DNA of 64,000 nucleotides, from positions 22,198 to 86,197 of the forward strand of contig JBKPDO010000038.1 in the NCBI GenBank assembly GCA_046727955.1, read 5' to 3'. The stretch is from a bacterium (GTDB lineage Bacteria > Actinomycetota > CALGFH01). The notes below the pieces were generated by a model. The model was not told the DNA's origin. It saw only the letters and a program-made list of their open reading frames with translations, and did not search any database. Below, one piece after another: positions 7,969-46,928 of the stretch. How positions within the stretch are numbered: the first letter of the stretch is position 1; the number at the start of each line of letters is the position of its first letter. Made by a program: the position numbers and the translations under genes.

Positions 7969-9836
7969 CTACCTCTTCACCCATACCTGGTAGTAGCCGT
8001 CGCCGTAACTGGTCCGATAAGGCAGCTTCGCCAGCAGACGGTATTTGTCATTCGTCCGCAGTTGCCGGAGAAGCTTGTCGTCCAATTCCTTCGTCACTGT
8101 CCAGTTGAGCACGATGACATCGAAATAGGCCTCGCGAATCGCCGCCCGGTAGCCAGGCTCGCCCAAGAGTAGCCTGCCCTTTCGATCCGTGTAGTTGATG
8201 GCGTAGGTGGAGGTCCACTGGTCCGGTGTGGTCTCCGCACGAAGGTAGTATCTGGGCACCGGGTTGGACTCGACCAGGTAGCGTCCCCCTGGTTTGAGCT
8301 GCGACTTGAGCGTGGCGACCATGCGCGTGGAGTCATCCCAGGCATGGTAAAGGTACTGGGATTGGGTGATTCCCAGCGTCAGCAGCGTCACCCAGGCGAG
8401 GATGGCCAGCTGGGGGTACCGGAAATGCGCCCCCATTATCCGACTCAGGCCGACGCCGGCCATGGGAGCCGTGAACAGCAAGCCGTAACCGACGTGCTTG
8501 TGCAGCGACACGCCGGTGTGCAGGTACACCTGGTACGCCGGCGCGAGCAGGGCGGTGCCACACAACAGCAGGCCGAGGGCCAGTCGCCACGGCCGACCAC
8601 GATTCCCATCTCGCCTCATGCGCGGCACCTCGCCCATGCGTTCCCGCCGGACATAGCACACCGTGCCCAACAGCGCGAGAGCGAGCAAGCCCCCACCACA
8701 CTCCAGGCAGTCGAGGAGCAGATCCAGGGGATCTGCGTTGCCAACGGCTCGGGCCGTGGTGGTGACGCGCACGGCGTGGAGATAATCGTCCCCGGCTAGC
8801 GCCAGCGCCCCGGCGAGCGTGGCTGCGGTGAAAGCGGGCAGCAAGATGCCACGCAGCACCAACCCTCCCCACCTGCGGTGCGGGAAGGTGGCCAGCGCGG
8901 CGAGCACGGCTACGGTGGGAAGAAACATGAGAGCGGCGTACTTCACCGCCACCGCGAGCGCCATCACCGGTGCAGCGAGAAGGCACGCCGGGATAGCCAA
9001 GTTGTGAGCGGTACGGACCACGATCCAGGCGGCAAGTGCGAGCAGGAAGATCGTCGCTGCGTCGTAGGTGGCGAAGTTGCCCAGAAACAGGGTGGACTGA
9101 GTGGTGGCGAAGACGGCAGCCGCGCACAAGCCTGCCCGTTCGTTGAACAGCAACCGCGACAGTGAGTAGAGCAGGGCCGTGGCCCCGAGCATGAAGACGA
9201 GGCTCAAGGCACGCGCCGCGGTGAGGCCGAAGGCCGACTCGACTGCGGCGGCAAGCACCGGGTAAAGACCGGCGAGCCAGAAAAGTACGCGGTGAACTCT
9301 GGCGGGACAGGCCTTCCGTAGTGGAAGTGGTCCAGTTGGAGGTGGCCGACGTAGAGATACAGGGCCTCGTCCTCGAACGCGGTGTTCTGCAGCCGGAGAG
9401 ACAGCACGGCCTGCACGACGAGGATGCCGAGCAGGACCGCTCGACTTACCCGAGTGCGGCGGCGGCTCGGCGCGGCTGTCCAGCCGGATTGGGGGACGGA
9501 AGGCACGCTGTAGCCCGGCGTCCGCTGCCTTGGGGTGGCGACGGGGGCGGCCCGGTGCATGGGAGGAGTGGGATGGCCTCGCCCGCGCTGGCCGGGCGGA
9601 CCGTTGCGCTCAAAGCCTGTCCTTGTCTGATTCTCGTCCCAGGACCACGGGTTCGCGGGTGGCGGTTCAGTGGCAGACGGAGGAACGGTGGCACGCCCAT
9701 CCTGATCCCAGGGAAGATACTCGCCGCCGGGACCGATCTCGACGGCGGGGGGTCTAGGGACATTCGTTTCGCCACCGCCATTTCGCTGAGCGGCGATGCG
9801 GCCACCGCCAGGTCGGATTTCTCTCTCAGAGGCCAT
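7969..9836 (-). pseudogene. GT39/ArnT-PMT-like membrane glycosyltransferase with a long Pro-rich N-terminal extension, interrupted by a 1-bp frameshift near 9245-9260
   Basis: N-terminal ORF 9204..9836 (...LLGILVVQAVLSLRLQNTAFEDEALYLYVGHLQLDH...FSGSP) continues in another frame as ORF 7969..9258 (GLYPVLAAAVESAFGL...). It could be a true pseudogene or an indel error. Confidence 0.6.
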
Positions 9837-10882
9837 CAGAGATGCTTCACGTCGAAGCCGAAGAGATCGTTCTCGGCTCTTCGCTTGAACTCGGCGAGTG
9901 CCGATGGATCGCTGTCGATGCGCCAGTCGGCGCGCTTGACGTAGTCGAACCAGATAAAGCCGATGACATCATGCGACGCAGCAACGCCCGCGAAGAGATC
10001 AGCGACGTCCTTGCGCTTCCGCGGCCCCGGCTCCGAGGCCGTCTCGAGGATGAGGATGGGCTTGCGGGCGAACTTGCGCACCGCAGCCGTCGTTGGACCG
10101 AAGAGCGTCGGGAACGTGCTGGCTCCCCTGCCCGTGTAGTAGCCGATCACGCCGATCCAGTCCACGTACGAGTCGCCAGGATAGAACGGCTTGAGCGGGA
10201 CCTGGGGCACTGGGTTGATGACGTTGGGGCTCCACACCCAGATCACGTTGGTTGCCCCGACGTCGAGAAAGATGTCGTGGATTCGCCGCCATGCGCGCAC
10301 GAAGTCAACCGGGGTTGTCGCTGTGGTTCCCCAGGGGTACCAGTGTCCGTTCATCTCGTGTCCGAAGCTGATGGCCACCGGCAGGTTGAGAGTCCGCACG
10401 GCGGTGGCGAACTTCCTGGTGTAATCGTCAGTCGCGCCGTCAGCGATATCCGCGATGGAGGGTTTGAACGGCTCCCACACCATTACGGGCAGGGCGCCTG
10501 CGGCTCGCGCATTTCTGACCCCCTGGGCGTCAAACTGGTCGCCCCACGCGGTGTAATACTCGAGCAGGTTGGGTTGCTTGCCAATCTTCCCCGCAAAGTC
10601 CCCCACCGGGCCAAGGGACTGGGGAGCGCCGCCGAGGGCGGCGCCGAGGTACTTGCGAGGGGGCTTGAGCAGCGGACGCACGTCGAAGGGGACAAACGCC
10701 TCTTCTGACTGCCCCTCCACTGAACCACCGGCGTCCGTTGCACCCTTCGACCGATGATCCATCGGTCCCGAAGAGCACCCGAGGAACGAGCCGAGCAGCC
10801 CTGCAAGCAGTAGCCCGACGATAGGCCGGGGTATCCTCTTGGCGCGGGCCGCCCAGAGAGCACCAAGACGGCTCGTCCTCAT
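9836..10882 (-). CDS. Glycoside hydrolase family 26 (beta-mannanase/endo-beta-glycanase-like) lipoprotein
   Basis: The GH26 catalytic motif FGHEMNGHWYPWG is present. The lipoprotein signal ends in the lipobox LGC. Its start overlaps the upstream GT2 stop (ATGA), and its stop overlaps the downstream GT39-like start (TGATG). Confidence 0.75.
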   Translation of the reverse strand: MRTSRLGALWAARAKRIPRPIVGLLLAGLLGSFLGCSSGPMDHRSKGATDAGGSVEGQSEEAFVPFDVRPLLKPPRKYLGAALGGAPQSLGPVGDFAGKIGKQPNLLEYYTAWGDQFDAQGVRNARAAGALPVMVWEPFKPSIADIADGATDDYTRKFATAVRTLNLPVAISFGHEMNGHWYPWGTTATTPVDFVRAWRRIHDIFLDVGATNVIWVWSPNVINPVPQVPLKPFYPGDSYVDWIGVIGYYTGRGASTFPTLFGPTTAAVRKFARKPILILETASEPGPRKRKDVADLFAGVAASHDVIGFIWFDYVKRADWRIDSDPSALAEFKRRAENDLFGFDVKHL

Positions 10883-12563
10883 GCGACCTCCTCCTTGCGC
10901 GGCTGGACGAGGATGCGGCCGACGATCGCGGCATAGAAAAGTCCGGAGGAGAGCACGAGCGCATAATCCGGTGGGTCCATCGTCACCATCCGCCAGAGGG
11001 CTGCCCCTACCCACACAAGTGCCGTGGCGCCGCCCCAGACGGTGATGCCAGTCCAGAAGCGTCGGGCTTGGTCATTGTTCTTTCTCGCCGAGGAACCGGT
11101 CGGCCGCCACGCCATCTGCCTGCGACGAAGGCTGTCCCAGATGGCGAAGGTGTGGGCCCAGCCGTACATCATCCGGGTGGCCCACGCCTCCAGCCGGTAA
11201 GGGCACTTGTGCCACATCGGAAAGATCAGTGTCGTATAGACCAGGCTGGGGACGATCAGCGTCATGTTCTCGAGGCGCAGCGTCCCCGGCATTGCCAGCA
11301 GCAACGTGATGGGAATGAGCGGGCCCACAAAGGTGAACAGTGCCGTGTGGATGTAGTAGAAAAAGCCGGACAGATAGCACATGCGGGTCCGCAGCCTGAG
11401 CTTTGTCCTCCAGAACTTCTTGCTGCTCAGCAGGTTCATCGTGCCCGAGCACCAGCGGTACTGCTGGGTCTGGAAGGCGCTCACCGTGTCCGGGCATAGG
11501 CCCGTCGACAGCGTGATAGGCACGTAGCGGAGATCCCAGCCGAGGCGGCGCAGGTCAAAGCCCGTGTGCACGTCCTCGGAGTGCGCAATCAGTGTCGTGC
11601 CACCGTTCTGCCTGAGCGCGGCACGCCGGTAGATGGCGCAGCTACCTACGCAGATCGCACCGTCCCTGCGTTGTCGGGCCACCTGGACCGAGCGGTAGAA
11701 GAGCTCCTGCACCGCCCCGGCTCCGCGCTCGATCCAGCTCTGCTCGTCGAGCACCCGGAAGTACTGCGGGGACTGGACAATTGCAATCCTCCGATCGCTC
11801 TCCATGTACGGAAGCAGTTCGTCGAGCAGATCAGGGCGGGAGCGAAATCGGCGTCGAGGATGACGATGTACTCCCCTGAGGAGAAGTGGAACCCGTAGCG
11901 GAGGTTGCCGGCTTTCTTGAACCAGCCCCGGTTCGGGCGGCTGCCATACGCAAAACCGAAGTTGGCCGCCATGGCGGCGACCGCGCGACTACCCGCGTCG
12001 TCGAGGACGCGGGGCGTGACCACCCCTTGATAGTACTGCGCCATCCCGGCGACGTGAGTCCACGTATTGTGCAGCACTTCGAGAGGCTCACCGCACACCG
12101 GCAGGAAGACGTCGACCGTTGGGTACACGGCCGGGCGCCAAGACGACACCAGGCGCCTATGGGCACGCAGGTCGAAATCTCGGCTGAAAGCGTTGACTGA
12201 GAGCGAGATTAGATAGTACGAGATCGTGAAGAGCAGGAGCGGCAGGTATGCCCACATCCAGTGGGCGGAGTGCATGAGCCTGAGCTGGGCCAAGGTCAGG
12301 CAGGTGAAGCTGACGAGAGAGCAGCAGGTGAGCACCCACAGATGCCGCTCGATATAGGAGTACTTCTCCCGATCGTCCGGCGGCTGAGGCAGGAGCCCCG
12401 CGATGCTGGGCGCCGAGCGGTACGCAGCCCGCCTGCGGCTGTGGGTGGCAGTGGTCCGAGTCCCCGCCCCGCGGTCGATGCTCGGACGCTGACGGACGCC
12501 GACACCGCTTGGGAGGGGAGCCGGCCGGGGTTGGAGGGGGGTCACAGCGGCGGATCTCCACAC
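10879..12563 (-). pseudogene. GT2 processive beta-glycan synthase (cellulose synthase BcsA/CslA-like; DxD, TED and QQYRW motifs), with a 1-bp frameshift near 11858
   Basis: ORF 11646..12563 carries DVFLPVCGEP and ILDADFAP then loses frame. ORF 10879..11805 resumes with PYMESDRRIAIVQSPQYF...EDVHTGF...QQYRWCSG. A single missing C in tcccgccctg restores a continuous protein. Confidence 0.7.
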
Positions 12564-12855
12564 GTAGAGGCAGTTACCGGGGCCCCGCGAAAGGCAGCAG
12601 GGAGGTGAGGCGACGCAAGCCTGTCATATCCCTCTTGAGCTAGCAAGAACGTCACTTCACTGAAGCTTCACCTATAGGACGGACAAGTATGATATTACGC
12701 AATCCGCCAGAAGCGAAAGCGGGCGCTCGTTGGATGGCCCAGTGCGACAGACAGCGAGGGTGCGTCTGTCGAACGGGTCGTGGTCTATGCTTGGGTTGCT
12801 AGCTGGGGTGTTCCCGGGCGGGCCAGATGCCGCCGCGGCTGCGCGCATCAGCTGG

Positions 12856-13317
12856 CTACAGGGCCGCGACCTGGTGCTCGCGTGGCCTTTCGGCGAGCAG
12901 GACCGGCGCCTGCAACACCTCGGCCCGCCGCTCCGGCGGGTCCGGGTCGGGCTCGGGCAGGGCGACGGCGCCCGCGCCGGCGAAAGGCCGTGGCCGTCGT
13001 GGTGCCGGCGCGCCCGCGCCTCCGCCGCGCCCGCGGTACACCAGCAAGCCGTTGACCGGGTCCGGGACCGCGTCCAGCGCGGCCCGCACGCTCGGCAGGA
13101 CGCGGAAGGCCTGCCACTGCTCCTCGTCGGCGAAGGCAACCTCGAATACCACGCCCCAGCGGTGCTCGTTCCAGACCCAGTCGACGGCGCCGTTGGAGAT
13201 CGCCGACTCGATCAGCGACGAGCTGTGAGCGTCCTTCCACCGCGCCGCCGAGAACGCCCCGTGAAATACCTCAATGGACCACCACTCCATGGTCCAACTG
13301 TAATCCGCCATCCTCAA
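12856..13317 (-). CDS. Hypothetical Trp-rich protein
   Basis: Minus-strand ORF (MRMADYSWTMEWWSIEVFHG...) has coding-like composition. The overlapping plus ORF looks antisense. No family is recognised. Confidence 0.4.
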   Translation of the reverse strand: MRMADYSWTMEWWSIEVFHGAFSAARWKDAHSSSLIESAISNGAVDWVWNEHRWGVVFEVAFADEEQWQAFRVLPSVRAALDAVPDPVNGLLVYRGRGGGAGAPAPRRPRPFAGAGAVALPEPDPDPPERRAEVLQAPVLLAERPREHQVAAL

Positions 13318-21700: not shown

Positions 21701-22900
21701 TTGGCCATGAGAGACGCAGTAATCGTCGACGCAGTGCGCACACCTATCGGAAGGGGCAAGGCGTCCGGCGCCCTGGCCGGAGTGCATCCGGTGGACCTGC
21801 ACGCGCACGCCATCCGCGCTCTCGTCGAACGAGTGGGCATCGACCCGGCGCTGATCGATGACGTCGTCGCCGGGGCTGTCGGGCAGATCGGCGAGCAGAG
21901 CACCAACACCGCGCGGTGGGCCGCGCTCGCGGCTGGACTTCCCGAGTCGGTGCCCGCCGTGACGGTGGACCGGCAGTGTGGCAGCGGCCAGCAGGCGATC
22001 CACTTCGCGGCGCAGGGGGTGATCGCCGGCGCGTACGACGTCGTCGTCGCTTCCGGCGTCGAGTCGATGAGCCATATTCCGATCGGCAGCCAGACGGCCG
22101 GCCGCGACTTCCTGGGGCCAGGCGTCGCCGCCCGCTACCCCGAGGGCCTCGTTCCGCAGGGCGTCAGCGCCGAGCTGATCGCCACCCGCTGGGGTCTGAC
22201 CCGCACCCAGCTAGACGCGTTCGCCACGACCAGCCACCAGCGCGCCGCGGCGGCGTGGGCCGATGGCCGCTTCGACCGCGAGGTAGCGCCACTGAAGGTC
22301 ACCGGTGGCGACGGAACCATGGTCGAGGTAGTGCGTGACGAGTCGGTTCGTCCGGACACCTCCGTGGAGGTCCTCGCCACGCTGAAGCCAGCGTTCTACC
22401 ACGAGCACTGGGCGCGGCGGTTCCCCGACATCGGCTGGAACGTCACCGCGGGAAACTCCTCCCCCGTCAACGACGGCGCCGCCGCGGTCCTGATCACCAG
22501 CAGCGACACTGCCAAGCGGCTCGGCCTGACGCCGCGGGCGCGCCTGCACAGCTTCGCCGTTGTCGGCGACGACCCGCTGCTCATGCTGACGGGCATCCTT
22601 CCAGCCACCACCAAGGTCCTGCGACGGGCCGGCCTCGAACTTGCTGACATCGACGCATTCGAGGTGAACGAGGCGTTCGCCAGCGTCGTCCTGGCCTGGC
22701 AGGCGGAGACGGGAGTGGACCTGGCCAAGGTGAACGTCAACGGAGGCGCGACCGCCCTCGGGCATCCCCTTGGCGCCAGCGGAGCGCGGCTGATGACGAC
22801 GCTGCTGTCCGTGCTCGAGCAGACCGGCGGCAGGTACGGGCTGCAGACGATGTGTGAGGCAGGCGGCCTGTCCAACGCGACCGTCGTCGAGCGGCTCTAG
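21701..22900 (+). CDS. Acetyl-CoA C-acyltransferase (thiolase II family)
   Basis: The thiolase N-terminus VDAVRTPIGR, the active-site region VDRQCGSGQQA, and the C-terminal GGATALGHPLGASGAR are all present. Confidence 0.9.
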   Translation: MAMRDAVIVDAVRTPIGRGKASGALAGVHPVDLHAHAIRALVERVGIDPALIDDVVAGAVGQIGEQSTNTARWAALAAGLPESVPAVTVDRQCGSGQQAIHFAAQGVIAGAYDVVVASGVESMSHIPIGSQTAGRDFLGPGVAARYPEGLVPQGVSAELIATRWGLTRTQLDAFATTSHQRAAAAWADGRFDREVAPLKVTGGDGTMVEVVRDESVRPDTSVEVLATLKPAFYHEHWARRFPDIGWNVTAGNSSPVNDGAAAVLITSSDTAKRLGLTPRARLHSFAVVGDDPLLMLTGILPATTKVLRRAGLELADIDAFEVNEAFASVVLAWQAETGVDLAKVNVNGGATALGHPLGASGARLMTTLLSVLEQTGGRYGLQTMCEAGGLSNATVVERL

Positions 22901-31638: not shown

Positions 31639-31902
31639 TCAGTGTGGACGGTAGACGACGTGGCGGTGCTGGATCCTGTGGACGGTGACGACCTTACGGT
31701 CATCGTCCACCTCGTAGATGACCCGATAGTCTCCGCGCCGCGCTGAGTACAGCCCGAACAGCTCACCTACAAGGGGCTTGCCGGCGCGGCGCGGATTCTC
31801 GGCGATGGGGCCCCGGATGGCCTGGAGCGCGGCGTCACGCACCTTCTCTGGAAGCTGGTTGAGGTGGCGGATCCCTTCCCGCGTGATCTCGACCTCGAAC
31901 AC
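31639..31902 (-). CDS. Type II toxin-antitoxin system RelE/ParE-family toxin
   Basis: 87 aa, located 10 bp downstream of a Phd/YefM-type antitoxin gene. The fold is RelE/ParE-like (RGDYRVIYEVDDDRKVVTVHRIQHR). Confidence 0.75.
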   Translation of the reverse strand: MFEVEITREGIRHLNQLPEKVRDAALQAIRGPIAENPRRAGKPLVGELFGLYSARRGDYRVIYEVDDDRKVVTVHRIQHRHVVYRPH

Positions 31903-31912
31903 GAGGCCGTAC

Positions 31913-32167
31913 CTACACCTGATCGCGCAGCGGAACCGTGTCGCCGGCAGCGGCCTGCCGACGGGAGATGCGTAGTGATTCCATCAATTCGTCGTCCTGC
32001 AGGATGTCCAGAGTCTCTTCCAGCGATGCAAGATCATCGGGACTCAGCAGGACGAAGGATGGTCGTCCGTTGCGAGTGACCAGGATCCGTTCATGCTCCC
32101 GCTCGACCCGGTCGGCCACCTCGGAAAGGTGGGCCTTTACTTCGGAGAATGGCAGTGCCTCACTCAT
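31913..32167 (-). CDS. Type II toxin-antitoxin system Phd/YefM-family antitoxin
   Basis: The N-terminal Phd/YefM signature LPFSEVKAHLSEVADRVEREHERILVTRNGRPSFVLLSPDDLASLEETLDIL is present. Confidence 0.8.
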   Translation of the reverse strand: MSEALPFSEVKAHLSEVADRVEREHERILVTRNGRPSFVLLSPDDLASLEETLDILQDDELMESLRISRRQAAAGDTVPLRDQV

Positions 32168-35573: not shown

Positions 35574-36089
35574 TCAGAGCAGGAGGCCCATGACGACGGC
35601 GTCCCACAGCTCGCCGTTGCGGCGTCGGTAGTGGCGACGGCGCAGGCCCTCGCGCTCGAACCCGAACTTCTCGTAGAGGGCGATCGCCGCCTGGTTGTGG
35701 GGCCACACCTCGAGCGAGACCTTGTGGGCGCCGGCCTCGCGCGCCCAGTCGATCCCGGCCCGGAGCAGGGCGCTCCCCACCCCACGGCCCCGCCAGCCAC
35801 TGGCGACCATCATGCCGAGGTCCGCCACGCCGTAGCTGGCCAGCTCCATCCACAGGTCACCCACCAGCTTCGACCCGGTGTCGGCGACCAGCAGCAGCGC
35901 ACGTTCCTCGTCGATCGCCCGCGCCAGTCCCTGCCGGCGGCGCTCGGTGTCGAGCGGCACCTCGGTACCGATCCAGCGCCCCTCGGCGGCGACCGCCGCC
36001 AGCAGGTCGATCAGCGCATCGACGTCCTGCTCGTGGGCACGCCGGATCGCCACCTCGGGGAGCGGCTGCTGCATAAGCGGCTGCTGCAT
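35574..36089 (-). CDS. GNAT family N-acetyltransferase
   Basis: The acetyl-CoA-binding motif WRGRGVGSALL is present. The start contains a duplicated 15-bp unit giving MQQPLMQQPL. Confidence 0.75.
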   Translation of the reverse strand: MQQPLMQQPLPEVAIRRAHEQDVDALIDLLAAVAAEGRWIGTEVPLDTERRRQGLARAIDEERALLLVADTGSKLVGDLWMELASYGVADLGMMVASGWRGRGVGSALLRAGIDWAREAGAHKVSLEVWPHNQAAIALYEKFGFEREGLRRRHYRRRNGELWDAVVMGLLL

Positions 36090-36134
36090 AACCTGACCTC
36101 ACAGGTCCGTGGCGACTCGAGGACGCCATTGTGC

Positions 36135-36230
36135 CGCGCTCGACCCCGTCCTCGAACCTGACCGGCGCGCTCCGCGACCCGGCCGGCAACGTCTTCGGCG
36201 TGTACGAGCACCACCACTGATCGCCGGGAC
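36135..36230 (+). pseudogene. Short C-terminal fragment of a VOC-family protein (...LRDPAGNVFGVYEHHH*)
   Basis: The end motif matches the intact VOC gene at 24889-25296. Only about 30 codons are present. Confidence 0.3.
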
Positions 36231-36514
36231 GGGAGCAATCGACAGGAAGGCTCGCACGCCCGCCGTGCTTGACACAGCTCCCCGCCGCAGGCAGGGTTGT
36301 CGCATGACCGTCGTGTACCTCACCCGGAACCGCGCGCTGGACTACCAGCGCGTCGTCTCCTGCGCCTGTATGAGGACCCGGCGGTCACCGCGCGGGCGCT
36401 AGCTCGCCTCCCGTTCCCCACCTCATCTGACCGCCGGGCTTTTGGGCGTGCCGTGCATGCGCGCGCCACCGGCCTGCCAGCCGCGACGCCGACCTCCACT
36501 GGAGGCATGACCGA

Positions 36515-38155
36515 ATGCAATTCCTCCGCAGGGAGCAGACCCTCAACCAGATCGAGCGCTGGAAGCTCGAGCGACACCCGCTGGACGTACGCCAGGCGGT
36601 CCTCGAGCGCTATGCGGCCGAGGGGCCGGACGCGATCGCCGCGGTCCCTGGCGAGGCGGAGCGGCTCAAGTGGGTCGGGCTGTACCCGCAGCGGCAGGGA
36701 GGGGACGCCTTCATGCTGCGCATCAAGATCCCCGGCGGGCGGCTGCGGGCCGAGCAGGCCAGTGTCATCGGCGAGCTGGCCGAGGAGCTCGCGCGCGGCC
36801 CGGCGCCGAACCCGGTGTTCGGGCAGGGGTTCCTCGATCTCACCACCCGGCAGGACGTCCAGCTCCACTGGCTCCGGATCGGCGACGTGCCCGAGATCTG
36901 GCGCCGCCTGGGGGAGGTCGGGGTCACCACCATCCAGGCGTGCGGCGACTCCGCGCGCAACGTGCTGTGCTGCCCGGTCTCCGGGCTCGACGACGACGAG
37001 GTGGTGGACGCCTACCCGGTGGCGCTGGCGATCTCCGACTACTTCACCGGCAACCGCGAGTATGCGAACCTGCCGCGCAAGTTCAAGATGAGCGTCACCG
37101 GCTGCCGCGAGGACTGCGCCAACGCTCAGATCAACGACGTCGGGCTGTGGCCGGCCCGCCTGGCCGACGGCACCGTTGGGTTCAACCTGCTGGTCGGCGG
37201 GGGCCTCTCCGACGGGCCGCGGATGGCCTCTGACATCGACGTGTTCGTGGTGCCCGACCAGGCGGTCGAGCTCGCCCGCGCGATCGCCCAGCTCTTCGGC
37301 GAGCTCGGCGACCGGGAGAACCGCTGGACCTGCCGGATGCGCTACCTGGTGCAGGAGCTGGGACCAGAGGGCTTCCGGGAGGAGCTGGCGCGGCGGGCCG
37401 CCTTCCCGCTCACCCCTGCCGGCGAGACGCTCACGCGCCGCCACCGCGGCGACCACGTGGGCGTCCACCGGCAAAAGCAGCCCAACCTGCACTACGTCGG
37501 GCTGAGCGTCACCGTCGGGCGCATGTCCGGCGGGCAGCTGGTCGAGGCGGCGCGGCTCGCCTCGGCCTACGGCTCGGGCGAGCTGCGGCTGGCCACCGAC
37601 CAGAACCTCATCCTTCCGGGAGTCCAGCGGGAGCGGCTGGACGACCTGCTGGCCGAGCCGCTGCTGGCTGAGTGCTCGCCCAGCCCGGGACCCTTCGAGC
37701 GCGGGGCGGTCGCCTGCACCGGCAGCGAGTTCTGCCGCTTCGCCATCGTGGAGACCAAGGCAAGGACCGCCACGCTGGCCCGCTGGCTGGACCAGCACGT
37801 CGACCTCGGCGACGAGGAGATCATCCGGCTGCACGTGTCCGGCTGCTCGGCCTCGTGCGCCCAGCCGCAGATCGCCGACATCGGCTTCAGAGGAGAGATC
37901 GCCCACCAAGGCGAGGCCATCGTCGAGGCGGCCGACATCGGGCTCGGCGGCAGCCTGGGGCGGGACGCGGCCTTCATCGACTGGGTCGAGGGCGCCCACC
38001 CCCTCGACCAGGCGCCCGCCGCCCTGGCGCGGCTGCTCACCCGCTACCGGACCGAGCGTGGCGACGGCGAGCGGTTCCACGAGTGGTGCCGGCGGGTGGG
38101 CAACGACGCTTTGCGCGCGACGATCCGAGACGTCAGCAGTCAGGAGGCAGGCTGA
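36515..38155 (+). CDS. Siroheme [4Fe-4S] sulfite/nitrite reductase hemoprotein, assimilatory NirA/SirA family
   Basis: 546 aa with two NIR_SIR ferredoxin-like halves. The cluster and siroheme Cys motif is CTGSEFCRFAIVE...VSGCSASCAQPQIADIGF. A ggagg RBS precedes the ATG at 36515. Confidence 0.85.
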   Translation: MQFLRREQTLNQIERWKLERHPLDVRQAVLERYAAEGPDAIAAVPGEAERLKWVGLYPQRQGGDAFMLRIKIPGGRLRAEQASVIGELAEELARGPAPNPVFGQGFLDLTTRQDVQLHWLRIGDVPEIWRRLGEVGVTTIQACGDSARNVLCCPVSGLDDDEVVDAYPVALAISDYFTGNREYANLPRKFKMSVTGCREDCANAQINDVGLWPARLADGTVGFNLLVGGGLSDGPRMASDIDVFVVPDQAVELARAIAQLFGELGDRENRWTCRMRYLVQELGPEGFREELARRAAFPLTPAGETLTRRHRGDHVGVHRQKQPNLHYVGLSVTVGRMSGGQLVEAARLASAYGSGELRLATDQNLILPGVQRERLDDLLAEPLLAECSPSPGPFERGAVACTGSEFCRFAIVETKARTATLARWLDQHVDLGDEEIIRLHVSGCSASCAQPQIADIGFRGEIAHQGEAIVEAADIGLGGSLGRDAAFIDWVEGAHPLDQAPAALARLLTRYRTERGDGERFHEWCRRVGNDALRATIRDVSSQEAG

Positions 38156-39333
38156 TGGCCGCGTTCAAGATCAGGGAGGAGATGAACGGCATCGCCGAGG
38201 CGCCGGGCAAGACCTGGTTCTGGGACCTCGAGGACGCCGTCATCGATGCCGACCGCTGCATCCAGTGCGGCGCCTGTGTGGCCGTCTGCCCCAGCGACTC
38301 GATCGGCATCGGCTCCGACGATCTGCCCACGCTGGTCAAGATGTGCACCGGCTGCTCGCTGTGCTGGGACTTCTGCCCGCGGGGCGGGCTGCGCCACGAG
38401 GCGACCTGGAAGCTCACCGGCACCGCCGGCGGTGGGATGGCCGCGGTCCGTGAGCGCTACAGCGCCCGCACGCGGCCGTCGATCCGCGGCGCGCAGGACG
38501 GCGGGGTGGTCAGCGCGATCCTGATCGCGCTGCTCGAGGAGGGCGAGCTGGACGGGGCGCTGCTGGCCCGCGAGAGCGCTACCGAGCCTTGGAAGGGCGA
38601 GGCGTTCCTGGCGCGCACACCCGCCGACGTGATCGAGTGCGCCGGCAGCTTCTACAACCAGACCATGGCGCTCGGCCACCTCGACCTGAAAGGCGTGGAG
38701 CTGCCGCCCGACCCGCGCATCGCTGTGGTCGGCACTCCCTGCGAGATCGAGGGGATCAGGGCCATGCAGGCCCGGCCCTGGTACTGGGGATCGGCCAGGG
38801 TCGACTGGGTGGTGCTGACCGTTGCGCTGCTGTGCACCAAGAGCTTCAACTACGAGAAGCTCATGGTGGGCGAGATCGAGCGCAGGCGCGGGATCCCGCT
38901 GCACCGGATCGACCGGGTGGACGTGATCCGCGGCAAGCTGATCGTCCAGGGCCACGAGGGCGAGACGCTGCTGGAGGAGCCGATCCGCGAGTTCCACGGC
39001 GCCGCGCTGAAGGGCTGCGACGAGTGCACCGATTTCCTCGGCAATGCCGCCGACTTGTCGGTGGGCAGCGTGGGCAGCTCCGACGGCTGGTCCAGCCTGC
39101 TGATCCGGACCGACAGGGGGCGGGCGGCCGTGCGGCGCGCCCGCGACCGGCTGGAGCTGCGCGAGCTGGAGCGGCCGGAGGGACTGGAGAAGCTGGAGGC
39201 GCTCGACAAGCGCGTCGCCTTCGAGCACCTCGCGCGCAAGTTCGACCCCGAGGCGCCGCTGTTCGTGGACTACGAGGAGCATCTCGACTCCTACAGCGGG
39301 ACGGACCGGGCGCCGGTGACCCGTGACCGCTGA
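38155..39333 (+). CDS. FrhB/FdhB/FpoF-family coenzyme F420 hydrogenase/dehydrogenase beta-subunit-like protein with an N-terminal 2x[4Fe-4S] ferredoxin domain
   Basis: CIQCGACVAVCP and CTGCSLCWDFCP are in the N-domain. FrhB-type blocks follow (GGVVSAILIALLEEGELDGALLA, VGTPCEIEGIRAM, GCDECTDFLGNAADLSVGSVG). The ATG overlaps the nirA-like stop (TGATG) and sits behind a caggagg RBS. Confidence 0.8.
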   Translation: MAAFKIREEMNGIAEAPGKTWFWDLEDAVIDADRCIQCGACVAVCPSDSIGIGSDDLPTLVKMCTGCSLCWDFCPRGGLRHEATWKLTGTAGGGMAAVRERYSARTRPSIRGAQDGGVVSAILIALLEEGELDGALLARESATEPWKGEAFLARTPADVIECAGSFYNQTMALGHLDLKGVELPPDPRIAVVGTPCEIEGIRAMQARPWYWGSARVDWVVLTVALLCTKSFNYEKLMVGEIERRRGIPLHRIDRVDVIRGKLIVQGHEGETLLEEPIREFHGAALKGCDECTDFLGNAADLSVGSVGSSDGWSSLLIRTDRGRAAVRRARDRLELRELERPEGLEKLEALDKRVAFEHLARKFDPEAPLFVDYEEHLDSYSGTDRAPVTRDR

Positions 39334-39480
39334 GAGCCTGTTTGCATTCGGGGGGGAGCCCGAGGCGGCTCCCCCCCGAACCCCCCCATCGGGTACCTCG
39401 CCCGGGTCCCGGGTCGGGGGTGAGCCGCGCAATCGGGCAGGTTCGCCGGGGCCCAGTGGCCCTTCGCAAACAGGCTCTGA
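39332..39480. promoter_or_regulatory. Highly structured intergenic element. 14-bp inverted repeats (tgagagcctgtttgc / gcaaacaggctctga) bracket a perfect G7/C7 hairpin (gggggggagcc-cgaggc-ggctccccccc) and a second small palindrome (gggcccagtggccc).
   Basis: Direct reading. The left IR overlaps the frhB-like stop codon, and the right IR ends 7 bp before the next ATG. Confidence 0.55.
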
Positions 39481-39486
39481 GGGGGC

Positions 39487-39808
39487 GATGGCAGGCGCTG
39501 CGCTGGAGCTGGAGCTGCCGCTGCCGCAGGAGCCGGCCGAGCTGCTGGCCGAGACGCGGGCGCTGGTGGAACGGTCCTCTGCTGAGGGTGCGGCCCTGAT
39601 CGACCAGGGCGAGTGGATCGTCGAGCCTCTCTGGCGGGACTGGGGGACGGAGCTGGAGCAGGCGGGGATGCGGCGCGAGGAGCTTGTCCAGGTCGCCATC
39701 GACTACCGCATGGAGCTGTGGCTCTGGGTGATGCGCGAGCGCACCTGGCCCCACTGCTCGAGCGGCCTGCGCGGTCGCGTTCTCCGCCGCCTCGCCGCGG
39801 GGCTCTAG
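39487..39808 (+). CDS. Hypothetical protein (107 aa), co-directional with and immediately downstream of the nirA-frhB-like pair
   Basis: ORF with coding-like composition (MAGAALELELPLPQEPAELLAETRALVERSS...). It is followed by a strong hairpin. Confidence 0.45.
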
Positions 39809-39825
39809 CCCGCCAAGGGCGGGCT
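39796..39825 (+). terminator. Perfect 13-bp-stem hairpin ggctctagcccgcc-aagg-ggcgggctagagcc, a factor-independent-like terminator without T-tract
   Basis: Direct reading. It overlaps the stop of the 39487-39808 ORF. Confidence 0.5.
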
Positions 39826-39900
39826 AGAGCCCCGGTCAAGTAGCCGGTATTGAGGTGATTGGGTGGCCACCGGGGGCGGCTCGCAGGGCTGGGAGCTGTA
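39826..39900. repeat. Copy 1 of a roughly 60-70 bp repeat CCGGTCAAGTAGCCGGTaTTGAGGTGATTGGGTGGCCaCCGGGGGCGGCtCGCAGGGC
   Basis: Near-identical to 61069-61140 (4 mismatches in 57 bp). A partial further match (tatgcgggggcctgggccccccgc) lies at 39990-40020. Confidence 0.7.
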
Positions 39901-40029
39901 CGTATGGTCTGACGCTGCATGCTGCGCCGCCTACTTGACCGGCGCTCTAGTGGTCAACAAACGAGTCAAGTTTCGAGGGCGGAGCCCTCACCGCTTTGGG
40001 GGGTATGCGGGGGCCTGGGCCCCCCGCAG

Positions 40030-41160
40030 CTAGGCCTCGGCGATGCGGTCGCCGTAGCGCTCCTCCACGCGGCGGACCCTCCACAGCAGCACCGAGCCGA
40101 TCCAGGCGGCCAGGAACATCGCCACGATGACGTAGCCGAGCACGCCGAAGTCGAGCTTCTGGTCGAGGAACTCGAAGAACGCGCCGTGCCAGCCGAGCCT
40201 GTTGCTGAGGACCTGCAGGATCTCGATGCTGCCGATCAGCAGGGCGACCGCCACCGATAGGCCAGTGGTGGTGATGTTGTACCAGATCTTCCGCAGCGGA
40301 CTGGAGAACGCCCACCCGTAGGCCTTGGACATCAGCGCTCCGTCGGTGGTGTCCATCATGCTCATCCCCGCCGCGAACAGCAGCGGCAGCGAGATCACCG
40401 CCCAGAACGATACCCTGCCGGTGGCGACCCCGGCGGTCAGCGCCAGCAGGCCGACCTCGCTGGCGGTGTCGAAGCCCAGGCCGAACAGCAGCCCGAGCGG
40501 GTACATCTGCCAGGAGTGGTTGATCAGCTTCTGCGCCCGGCCGCCGAGGATGCGGTTGACGAAGCCGCGCTGCAGCAGCAGCTCCTCGAGGTGCTCGCGG
40601 TGGTAGGTGCCCTGCTTCATCTGCCGCCAGATGCGGACGATCTCCAGCAGCACGATCAGGTTGAGCACGCCGATGACCCACAGGAACACCCCGGAGACGC
40701 TGGCGCCGATGGTCCCGCCGACGTTTTGCCACCCGGGGATGCGCGACTCCACCGCCTTGGCCGCAACCGCCAGGCCCAACGCCAGCGAGAACACGACGGT
40801 GGAGTGGCCAAGCGAGAAGAAGAACCCCACCCCGAGGGGTCGCTTGCCCTTCTGCAGCATGAAGCGGGTGGTGTCGTCGATCGCGGAGATGTGGTCGGCG
40901 TCGAAGGCGTGGCGCAGCCCGAAGGTGTAGGCCAGCACGCCAGCGCCGGCGAAGGCCGGGTACTTGGACGCCACCCCGACGAACAGCCCCCAGCCGAGCA
41001 CGTGCAGCAGCGCGATGAAGCCGTACATGCTGCCGAGCCTTCCCCACTCGCTCGGGGTGAACAGGGTGAGCGCGCGGGTCAGGCGCCCCTGTGCCGGCTG
41101 AGTGGACCGGGCGAACCGGGCGGGCCGGGCGGACCGGGCGGACCGGACGTCGACGGCCAT
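40030..41160 (-). CDS. hoxN: HoxN/HupN/NixA-family high-affinity nickel/cobalt permease (NiCoT)
   Basis: The NiCoT signature in TM2 is LRHAFDADHISAIDD. A second motif is LGFDTASEV. There are 8 TM segments. The N-terminus contains 9-bp repeats (cgggcggac) at 41102-41150. Confidence 0.85.
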   Translation of the reverse strand: MAVDVRSARSARPARFARSTQPAQGRLTRALTLFTPSEWGRLGSMYGFIALLHVLGWGLFVGVASKYPAFAGAGVLAYTFGLRHAFDADHISAIDDTTRFMLQKGKRPLGVGFFFSLGHSTVVFSLALGLAVAAKAVESRIPGWQNVGGTIGASVSGVFLWVIGVLNLIVLLEIVRIWRQMKQGTYHREHLEELLLQRGFVNRILGGRAQKLINHSWQMYPLGLLFGLGFDTASEVGLLALTAGVATGRVSFWAVISLPLLFAAGMSMMDTTDGALMSKAYGWAFSSPLRKIWYNITTTGLSVAVALLIGSIEILQVLSNRLGWHGAFFEFLDQKLDFGVLGYVIVAMFLAAWIGSVLLWRVRRVEERYGDRIAEA

Positions 41161-44980: not shown

Positions 44981-46718
44981 CTACCTCTCAGATGCCGCTG
45001 GCTCCCTGGGCGGCGAGGAACAGGCCCACGGCGATGATGGCGGCAGCGCTCGCCAGCGGCAGGGCCCGGCTGAGCCCGGCGAGTCCCAGGCGCGGCCCAC
45101 ACGCGCCCACGCTGGGGAGGCAGCGCCCTGGTCGAGCGCGACGCCCCGGTCGACCGCGGCGCGCCGGTCGACCGCGGCGCGGACCCGGACCAGCAGCATG
45201 CCAGAGCCGGTAAGAGTCAGCGCCATGCCAGCGCCGTATGCCAGCACCAGCAGCACGCCGAACCAGGCACGGCCGAGCGCGATCGCGCCGAGCAGCACGA
45301 CCAGGGCCGACGGGCTGGGCACGAGCCCGCCGGCGAACCCCATCGATACCAGGCTCCGCCAGCCCGGCGGCCGGTGGTGGTCCAGGGCGCCGCCCGGCGG
45401 ATGCGTGTGACCAGGAGGCGGGTCGGCGCGGCCGGCCGAGCCAGCGTGGCCCGGCAGGTGCATGTGACCAGGTGGGGCGGCGCAGGCGTGCCCGGGCGAG
45501 TGAGCGTGCCCGGCCGAGTGGGCGTGGCGGTGGGCGTGGTGGTGGCGGGCGGTGTGCAGAACCCCGGCGAAGGAGGGTCACGCCGATTGAGGCCAGCAGG
45601 AGGCCGCTGGCGAGGCCGAGCAAGGGGTCCTGGCGCTCGGGCGCGAGCGCGGTCGAGGCCGACAGCGCGATCCCGAGCGCCAGGACCCCGGCGGTGTGGG
45701 TGAGCGTGACCGTCGACGCGACCAGCAGCGCCTGTGACAGCGAGCTGCGCAGGCCGGGGAGGTAGGCGGCCATGATCGTCTTGCCGTGCCCCGGAGCCAG
45801 CGCGTGGATCGCGCCGAGCAGCAGCGCCAGCGCAACCGCCAGGGCACCGAAGGCGGGACCGAGGCGCTGGCGGGCGACTAGTTCAGTGAAGGCGCGGGTG
45901 GCCCGGTCCACCGCCATGGGCACGGCCGCCCGCCGCGGCGCCGCCTCCGGTCCCCCACCCTCCGAGGCCGCGCCCGCCGCCGCGGTGCCGCCGGGCCGGA
46001 ACGAGACCGTGGCGGCGCGTTGGTCAAGCGGCGAGCGCAGCAGGTCCTTGGGGTAGCTGGTGAGGCGGGCGCTGGCGCTGGCGGCCGGCACGTCGCGCGA
46101 GGTCACCGTTGTGCCGTCACCGACAGCCGTGACCTCGCGCCAGCCGACGCGGCCTGCATAGTCGCCGTTGGTGAGGGTGAGGGTCCCGCCCGCGAGGGTC
46201 CCGCGGGTCTCCCCGGCGAGGGCCCCGCGGGTCTCCCCGGCGAGGGTCCCACCCGCGAGGGTCCCACCCGCGGGGGTTCGACTCGGGGGCGCCTGGCCTC
46301 GGGCAGTGGCGAGGCCGCATTCGAGGCGGAGGGTGGGCAGACCGCCGGCCCCAGGCGGGAAACTCATCCGGCTCGCCACCGTGACCAGGTCGAGGCGGCG
46401 CCCGTCCAAGCGCAGGACCAGCCCACCGGCCAGCCGCGGGCAGCTCGCCGACCGCCAGGCGCTCGCCTCCGCCGACGACACCGACTGATCACCATCGGCG
46501 TCGATCTCCTGCCGAGTCTGGAAGGCCGGGATCTCCGCCATGTCCACCACGTAGTCGACCTCGACACGGTCCGGCAGCAGGCGCAGCCCGGCGTACTGGT
46601 TGACGGTGAAATTCCCGAGCGGGTGCGCGGCCGCGGCCCCCGCTGAGACCAGCAGCAGCCCCACCGCCAGCGCAGCCACCGCGGCCAGCCGCACACCCGC
46701 GCGCCGCATCCTGACCAT
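44981..46718 (-). pseudogene. NicO/RcnA-family nickel/cobalt transporter with an N-terminal signal peptide and periplasmic domain. It is repeat-rich and broken by at least one frameshift, possibly two.
   Basis: One frame holds the signal peptide, HPLGNFTVNQY, and the NicO signature HALAPGHGK. The His-rich loop and C-terminal TM region (HTHPPG...GLVPSPSALVVLLGAIALGRAWFGVLLVLAYGAGMALTLT) are in another frame. Internal tandem repeats lie at 46190-46270 and 45148-45186. Confidence 0.55.
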
Positions 46719-46928
46719 AGCGAAGGCGCCGGGGCCAGTCCGCGGGCGCACGGCGCACACGGGGCGCACGGGGCGCACGGGGCGCCGCGGGGTGAGGCCG
46801 CGGATCCGGATCGGCAAGGTCGTCCTCCCGTCGTCGGTCACGAGTGCTTCGGACCCGACGCAAAGACGGATGGGCGGCAATCCAAAGTGTCGATCCGAAA
46901 GGGACGAGGTCCGGTCCTGGGGCGAGCC

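Follow-up and report, generated by a model that had tools for sequence, protein, structure and literature searches.

The 64,000-nucleotide (nt) stretch analysed here (positions 22,198 to 86,197 of contig JBKPDO010000038.1, assembly GCA_046727955.1, from an actinobacterium of the lineage CALGFH01), called the window below, carries on its plus strand a three-gene cassette whose products are probably a two-subunit F420H2:sulfite oxidoreductase serving assimilatory sulfate reduction and a small accessory protein. The genes code for a siroheme-[4Fe-4S] hemoprotein (36515-38155), for an FrhB-like flavin/iron-sulfur (Fe-S) protein (38155-39333) and for an orphan protein named c6 (39488-39808). The evidence lies in the domain content of the two larger proteins, in the conservation of their cluster ligands and of the anion site, in the pairing of their genes and in the operon context found in relatives. 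An original prediction, made from the sequence of the window, had described the first two genes as a split F420H2-dependent siroheme reductase for sulfite or nitrite.

Relatives were searched in one genome per species with the 392-amino-acid (aa) FrhB-like protein as the query, and genomic context was read in the best 80 of at least 586 stretches. The 80 belong to Rubrobacter and Rubrobacteraceae (among them the cultured R. taiwanensis), Acidimicrobiales, unclassified Actinomycetota and Chloroflexota (Thermomicrobiaceae, Thermobaculum). The upstream gene could be counted in 75 of them, the remaining five ending at a contig edge; strict context counts use 6-kb flanks, with the loci that hold enough DNA as denominators. 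Conservation was read from alignments of 66 homologues of the hemoprotein and 73 of the FrhB-like protein. Neighbouring open reading frames (ORFs) of the relatives were clustered and their representatives named with NCBIfam, not every cluster being annotated, and the curated NCBIfam equivalog cut-offs served as the threshold for subfamily membership. The exact 392-aa protein is present on nine contigs from metagenomes or metagenome-assembled genomes (MAGs), including NCBI GCA_046725455.1.

The hemoprotein

The first gene (36515-38155, plus strand) starts at the first in-frame start codon past a stop and encodes a 546-aa assimilatory-type siroheme-[4Fe-4S] sulfite reductase hemoprotein of the NirA/SirA lineage, which is the family proposed originally from its CTGSEFC and SGCSASC cysteines. 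The ORF coordinates were exact, and Pfam detected two NIR_SIR domains (E 1.4e-53) and two NIR_SIR_ferr domains (E 8.2e-38), that is, the doubled NIR_SIR architecture. The cluster and siroheme cysteines of the CTGSEFC...SGCSASC motif are C401, C407, C444 and C448. All four are invariant in the homologues aligned, as are R69, R112, R148, K189, K191, Y57 and C143. Pfam, PDB matches and invariant residues all support its assignment as an aFsr-alpha-like subunit, a term taken up below.

When the full-length protein was compared with the PDB, the best matches were plant nitrite reductases (tobacco NiR, 1e-95), followed by SirA of Mycobacterium tuberculosis (1zj8, 1.8e-77), and with the active-site segment alone SirA was the top match. 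The position that discriminates between the two activities is Lys191, which lies in the sequence LPRKFK in the window, LPRKYK in SirA and LPRKWN in tobacco NiR, where the last residue is Asn226. The tobacco NiR sequence of entry 3vlx departs from the other deposited chains exactly at this site, with Asn changed to Lys; we take it to be the N226K mutant, which presumably gains sulfite-reductase-like behaviour. An ACGD motif is also common to the hemoprotein (ACGDSAR) and SirA (ACGDCPR), and in the 1zj8 alignment C143 aligns with the first Cys of the SirA motif, presumably the cross-linked Cys161 if the deposited chain carries an 11-residue tag. The Tyr partner of the SirA Tyr-Cys cross-link (Tyr69) gave no confident alignment to the hemoprotein.

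The overall matches would suit a different enzyme, an F420H2-dependent assimilatory nitrite reductase with the same wiring and nitrite as its physiological substrate. The best NCBIfam match is in fact the ferredoxin-nitrite reductase family NF007125, with the 'NirA family' also among the nearest, and Fsr enzymes reduce nitrite too, FsrII being a nitrite reductase (PMC9295563, PMC13381448). Nevertheless, the NF007125 score of 429.9 bits is under the cut-off of 594, that of the 'NirA family' is also below its cut-off, and the position of the NiR-specific Asn226 is occupied by Lys in all 66 homologues. The name itself can mislead, given that the 'NirA' of M. tuberculosis is a misnamed sulfite reductase, as indicated by a reference cited in PMC11237513. 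The genomic context of the relatives, which bears on the same question, is described below.

The FrhB-like subunit

The second gene (38155-39333, plus strand) encodes a 392-aa aFsr-beta-like subunit in which an N-terminal 2x[4Fe-4S] ferredoxin domain precedes an FrhB/FpoF-type flavin/[4Fe-4S] module, a putative F420H2 oxidase. A ferredoxin domain followed by FrhB N and C blocks had been expected here, and the Pfam check found a Fer4 dicluster at residues 28-78 (CIQCGACVAVCP, CTGCSLCWDFCP), FrhB_FdhB_N at 102-176 (E 3e-21) and FrhB_FdhB_C at 188-338 (E 6.5e-34), with all domains above the Pfam cut-offs. The eight ferredoxin cysteines, C196, C227 and C288 are invariant in the 73 homologues, so that 11 of the 12 cluster cysteines are present in 73/73, and the last one, C291, in 72/73. 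The residues of the QDGG and S-x-YN motifs are likewise invariant, and G304, S305 and G307 of the GSVGS motif, like C291, are found in 72 of the 73 (one alignment gap); a few conservative replacements were seen among the motif residues checked.

In the PDB search, the protein matched the N-terminal half of Fsr (2e-45 and 2e-44, aligned to Fsr residues 4-316), an F420-reducing CODH subunit (8riu_B, 7.6e-40), FrhB (1e-32) and an Fwd subunit (8rja_E, 2e-30). As judged by these alignments, its nearest solved relatives are all F420-reactive. A coarse check by Foldseek with a low-confidence AF2 model returned the same structures in the same ranking, except that 8riu_B came out on top. The NCBIfam scores for FrhB, FpoF and F420H2 dehydrogenase subunit F were 144.7 bits against a cut-off of 331.5 (TIGR03289), 140 against 475 (NF040616) and 135.4 against 444 (NF006808). 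The protein would accordingly be classed by these profiles within the FrhB superfamily, but neither as FrhB proper nor as FpoF. Since no score reaches its curated equivalog cut-off, neither the hemoprotein nor the FrhB-like protein falls into a named NCBIfam subfamily.

Pairing of the two genes

The stop codon of the hemoprotein gene (TGA, 38153-38155) and the start codon of the FrhB-like gene (ATG, 38155-38157) have one A in common, forming a TGATG overlap (38153-38157, plus strand), and a Shine-Dalgarno-like cAGGAGG (38141-38147, plus strand) lies within the 3' end of the first gene, 7 nt before the ATG at 38155. Both elements had been pointed out originally and were read directly in the sequence. 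The overlap recurs in relatives: it is 1 nt long in 47 of the 75 loci with upstream DNA and 4 nt long in 6 more (53/75 together), and most of the non-overlapping pairs are separated by 13 nt or less. The overlapping codons would couple the translation of both subunits, and therefore equimolar synthesis would be favoured.

A search for the same pairing in related genomes, which had been suggested as a check, gave a clear answer, with the hemoprotein gene directly upstream of the FrhB-like gene and on the same strand in 75/75 loci. In addition, the identities of the two proteins to those of the window co-vary between loci (r = 0.64, n = 62). The pairing of the two genes goes beyond chance. The pairing had also been considered as a local accident of one MAG, a possibility rejected on the adjacency found in the related loci.

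The genes could still be co-transcribed without their products forming a complex, the hemoprotein being an ordinary ferredoxin-dependent SirA and the FrhB-like protein a separate F420H2 oxidase for a soluble carrier or another acceptor. Retention by the hemoprotein of the full architecture of ferredoxin-dependent enzymes would fit this, and FpoF is reported to function as a soluble protein in Methanosarcina mazei. However, adjacency over two phyla, a conserved stop/start overlap and the correlated divergence of both proteins are hard to reconcile with independent functions, and the built-in 2x[4Fe-4S] ferredoxin domain would be a natural replacement for soluble ferredoxin. Moreover, the FrhB module belongs to a stable complex in every structurally characterised relative (PMC10229431, PMC11493965). 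Separate action of the two proteins is thus unlikely, and a complex of hemoprotein and FrhB-like subunit is the arrangement that we infer.

The third gene and its spacer

The conserved unit has three genes and not two as originally described. The third (39488-39808, plus strand) encodes c6, a 106-aa orphan protein that is probably an accessory factor or subunit. Homologues lie directly downstream of the FrhB-like gene in 76 of the 77 loci with room for them, usually about 16 nt away. The predicted model of c6 is a confident six-helix structure, yet the protein, annotated as 'hypothetical', had no Pfam or NCBIfam family and no fold match in the PDB, and an exhaustive profile search recovered 269 representative clusters only. 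The idea that c6 is a spurious ORF of high-G+C DNA was rejected, since it is kept in 76/77 loci and has a homologue family of its own in the profile search.

The c6 domain is fused to the C-terminus of an FrhB-like protein in P0173 (523 aa) and likewise in two fragments, although these could be products of stop-codon read-through or sequencing artefacts. In P0251, it stands N-terminal to a PAPS_reduct domain, in a protein read as CysD-like. Even if the former are artefactual, these predicted FrhB and CysD-like fusions tie c6 to the cassette system, in which it may serve as subunit, adaptor or maturation factor.

In the window, c6 is separated from the FrhB-like gene by a structured spacer of 154 nt (39334-39487, plus strand), framed by a perfect inverted repeat of 12 nt, GAGCCTGTTTGC, whose arms lie at 39334-39345 and 39466-39477. 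Its predicted RNA fold has -103 kcal/mol (z = -4.8 vs shuffles) and holds a 13-bp G/C hairpin. The spacer is single-copy in the window and was found elsewhere only on contigs of the same MAG. Because the spacer of most relatives is only about 16 nt long, this one appears to be either an insertion specific to the lineage or an element that acts in the processing or stability of the mRNA.

Genomic context in relatives and the substrate

In Rubrobacterales, the cassette is part of a same-strand row with the order cofD, cofE, a gap of 1-2.5 kb, cysH, hemoprotein, FrhB-like protein, small ORF, sat, cysC and a TauE-family permease, with an MFS gene inside the cofE-cysH gap in some loci. The row of Acidimicrobiales consists of cysH, hemoprotein and FrhB-like protein, with siroheme-synthase and cysN genes divergent, and that of Chloroflexota of a gene for a siroheme synthase N-terminal domain, cysH, hemoprotein and FrhB-like protein. 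The representatives scored above their NCBIfam cut-offs, with 548 bits vs 387 for sat, 256 vs 154 for cysH and 280 vs 244 for cysC, and similarly 277 vs 181 bits for cofE (TIGR01916) and 314 vs 257 bits for cofD (TIGR01819).

At least one sulfate-assimilation gene was found inside the 6-kb flanks in 66 of the 80 loci. In 43 of the 61 loci that extend far enough, sat lies no more than 1 kb downstream; cysH is the gene directly upstream in 41 of 62. The recurrence of cysH, sat and cysC speaks against nitrite as the physiological substrate, as does the result that no nas or narK gene appeared among the context probes and the annotated clusters, some clusters being unannotated; the window itself, in which tblastn found no adjacent sulfur gene, is the point of context that nitrite has in its favour. 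Reduction of nitrite as the main function is thus disfavoured, and we give it a very low probability. The choice between sulfite and nitrite, which the original prediction had left open, is settled for sulfite as the indicated substrate, because cysH, sat, cysC, TauE and siroheme synthase genes accompany the cassette in relatives and Lys191 is of the sulfite reductase type.

The electron donor and the proposed mechanism

Genomic context connects the cassette directly to F420 only through the linkage to cofD and cofE in relatives. In 24 of the 27 Rubrobacterales loci with enough DNA, cofE lies upstream in the same orientation, usually with cofD before it. Further downstream, some Rubrobacterales loci carry a gene for an LLM-class oxidoreductase followed by a PPOX-F420/FbiB-C-terminal fusion gene. 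The fusion, about 5 kb downstream in loci L012-L070, joins a TIGR03668-type PPOX-class F420-dependent oxidoreductase domain to a nitroreductase-like FbiB C-terminal domain, and the preceding LLM-class gene is nearest to F420-dependent LLM families, below their cut-offs. The recurrence of the PPOX/FbiB-C and LLM genes suggests a larger F420-centred operon.

With F420 as the donor that we infer from these data, the enzyme would work as follows. A flavin bound within the FrhB-type module of the 392-aa subunit would accept a hydride from F420H2 and pass single electrons to the module's own [4Fe-4S] cluster (C196, C227, C288, C291), from which they would reach the N-terminal ferredoxin domain with its two [4Fe-4S] clusters. 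This domain, acting as a tethered ferredoxin, would dock on the 546-aa SirA-type hemoprotein and feed its [4Fe-4S]-siroheme centre, where sulfite, held by R69, R112, R148, K189 and K191, would undergo the six-electron reduction to sulfide. The proposed relay would be that of Fsr (PMC10229431), with the Dsr-type half swapped for a separate enzyme of the assimilatory type.

Several points weigh against this interpretation. The cassette is isolated in the window: neither cys nor cof genes were found within the 64 kb, and the original remark that neither cys nor nitrate-assimilation genes are adjacent was correct here. Ten representatives (cofD, cofE, cysH, sat, cysC, cysN, TauE, LLM, PPOX/FbiB-C and sirC) gave no match in a tblastn of the window, and no sulfur or F420 gene appeared in Pfam/NCBIfam scans of 1-28, 28-50 and 50-53 kb, the part from 53 to 64 kb being covered by tblastn only. 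Among the relatives, the linkage to cofD/cofE was confined to Rubrobacterales and a part of the unclassified Actinomycetota, with none seen in Acidimicrobiales or Chloroflexota loci. Over its full length, the hemoprotein scores slightly better against plant nitrite reductases than against SirA. The AF2 model of the FrhB-like subunit, made from a 10-sequence alignment, has a mean pLDDT of 54 and is thus of low confidence. Furthermore, the residues that bind F420 are too poorly defined in the FrhB family for a sequence test, the FrhB fold is also present in the ferredoxin-dependent enzyme HCAR (5dqr), and Fsr crystals showed no F420 density (PMC10229431).

Some of these points would equally fit a sulfite reductase whose FrhB-like subunit is a flavin/Fe-S input module that, as in HCAR, would serve a donor other than F420H2, for instance reduced ferredoxin or NAD(P)H. 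Motifs for F420 binding are too loosely defined to argue against such a donor, the protein scores under all the NCBIfam FrhB and FpoF equivalog cut-offs, and cof genes are not found beside the cassette in Acidimicrobiales loci, Chloroflexota loci or this window. Nonetheless, HCAR is a remote match to the FrhB-like protein (E 1e-4) compared with the F420-reactive modules (1e-32 to 1e-45), and the same-strand cofD-cofE genes of the Rubrobacterales, with more F420-family genes downstream, would be difficult to explain. F420 or its biosynthesis genes have also been reported in actinobacteria generally, in marine Acidimicrobiales and in the Chloroflexi member Thermomicrobium roseum (PMC8498797; PMC10205998). 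A donor other than F420H2 is therefore regarded as rather improbable, and F420H2 is retained as the preferred one.

Relation to known enzymes

The cassette of the window is of the aFsr type, a kind of enzyme known only as a prediction. A two-subunit 'aFsr' was proposed by Susanti and Mukhopadhyay (2012), who attributed it to haloarchaea and equated aFsr-alpha with aSir and aFsr-beta with a homologue of Fsr-N (PMC3448663). By its published description, aFsr has the architecture of the cassette, in which a hemoprotein of the aSir type is accompanied by a free-standing homologue of Fsr-N/FpoF carrying a 2x[4Fe-4S] ferredoxin domain. In the window as well, the alpha protein is of the aSir type, the free-standing beta protein has two ferredoxin motifs and a third set of cysteines, and the genes are adjacent and co-oriented. 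Rxyl_0964 from Rubrobacter xylanophilus, as well as a protein of Thermobaculum terrenum, is already placed in the supplementary trees on aFsr (PMC3448663) and in Fig. 4 of a later paper (Heryakusuma et al. 2022, PMC9295563), and both of these published aFsr-beta lineages are also among the closest loci found here.

Because the aFsr arrangement had already been published, the novelty of the cassette is lower than the original prediction assumed. The published description of aFsr is purely bioinformatic, and its discussion was found only in two papers of that group; our literature searches found no biochemical test of a bacterial aFsr. In the passages of the aFsr papers that were covered, reached by term searches, there is no strict three-gene unit, no link to a cofD/cofE plus sat-cysC-cysH operon, no sulfite-reductase-type signature and no spread over at least 586 species.

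A characterised system with the logic proposed for the cassette is Fsr of Methanococcales (EC 1.8.98.3; PDB 7np8, 7npa), which runs from F420H2 through a flavin and an Fe-S relay to siroheme. Its N-terminal half aligns with the whole 392-aa protein (E 2e-44) and has in common with it the QDGG, S-x-Y and GSVGS motifs and all cluster cysteines. However, Fsr is a single polypeptide whose reductase half is one Dsr/AsrC-like repeat with inserted ferredoxin domains, whereas the cassette encodes a separate pseudo-dimeric reductase of the aSir/NirA type that matches Fsr-C weakly (E 5e-8, residues 66-212, ~150 residues). The cassette thus lacks both the one-polypeptide form and the Dsr/AsrC-type C-terminal half of Fsr. 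The hosts differ too, Fsr being present in archaeal anaerobes and the cassette in Actinomycetota and Chloroflexota.

SirA of M. tuberculosis (also NirA, Rv2391) is of the same family and length as the hemoprotein, and has in common with it the LPRK(F/Y)K and ACGD motifs, including the K-x-K anion site and the ACGD Cys. In contrast to the cassette, it takes electrons from soluble ferredoxin and is without an FrhB-like partner gene. In M. tuberculosis, cysH is presumably adjacent to sirA, as it is to the hemoprotein gene in many relatives of the cassette.

In the CODH and formylmethanofuran dehydrogenase of Ca. Ethanoperedens (8riu_B, 8rja_E; PMC11493965), F420 is plugged into enzymes that are elsewhere ferredoxin-dependent by a free-standing subunit of the FrhB type that has a ferredoxin domain at its N-terminus. 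These two enzymes differ from the cassette in their catalytic partner, in working in the F420-reducing direction and in their archaeal host. Two overviews of the field confine the FrhB-type class to Archaea or Euryarchaeota (PMC8518648, PMC8498797).

Surroundings in the window

Upstream of the cassette, the intergenic region at 36090-36514 (plus strand) is its presumed promoter region according to the ORF map, lying between the hemoprotein gene and a divergent GNAT acetyltransferase gene (35574-36089, minus strand). A promoter and terminator scan of 35900-40100 found no sigma-70 consensus site or terminator, and no Rfam family was detected anywhere in the window. The other upstream neighbours are genes for a PDZ/Lon_C protein and a DUF5612/ACT protein, and those downstream are NicO transporter, GNAT, MerR, thioredoxin, LtrA and TetR genes. 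The NicO-family nickel/cobalt transporter gene (40030-41160, minus strand) is full-length and lies just downstream of the cassette; a 630-aa protein encoded at 44988-46880 (minus strand), with the MerR and thioredoxin genes between it and the NicO gene, has a weak partial NicO match only.

Further away, a ParE-toxin/PhdYeFM-antitoxin gene pair (31639-31902 and 31913-32167, both on the minus strand) was identified from precomputed Pfam data on identical contigs of the same MAG. The G+C content of the window is 71%, and the region from 8000 to 13000 is lower, at 64-66% vs about 71%. This low-G+C stretch holds a truncated-looking cellulose-synthase-like glycosyltransferase gene (10879-11805, minus strand) plus ORFs without family matches, and may be acquired DNA.

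Biological meaning

Bacterial F420 has mostly been linked with secondary metabolism, the reduction of xenobiotics and stress resistance in mycobacteria. If the assignment made here is true, F420H2 would feed a core assimilatory step, the reduction of sulfite to sulfide, and F420 would have a role in the primary metabolism of aerobic bacteria. A more ambitious view, that hemoprotein, FrhB-type oxidase and c6 form the first bacterial enzyme of the FrhB/'FDRC' class, with F420H2 supplying the electrons of sulfur assimilation to hundreds of aerobic Actinomycetota and Chloroflexota species from soil and with c6 as an obligate new subunit or assembly factor, is put forward tentatively, as more doubtful than the two-subunit enzyme itself.

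Species-level genomes that encode a relative of the FrhB-like subunit number at least 586, from Rubrobacteria, Acidimicrobiia, further Actinomycetota and Chloroflexota, and the predicted enzyme type is widespread among bacteria of soil. The current labels of the genes in annotation pipelines, 'ferredoxin-nitrite reductase' and 'coenzyme F420 hydrogenase subunit beta', need correcting. The whole operon is present in cultured Rubrobacter species, which makes a direct test of the idea feasible. An enzyme of this type would contradict the 'archaeal only' placement of the FrhB-type F420 module and, if confirmed, would mean that a ferredoxin-dependent siroheme enzyme was rewired merely by adding a flavin/Fe-S subunit with a ferredoxin domain of its own.

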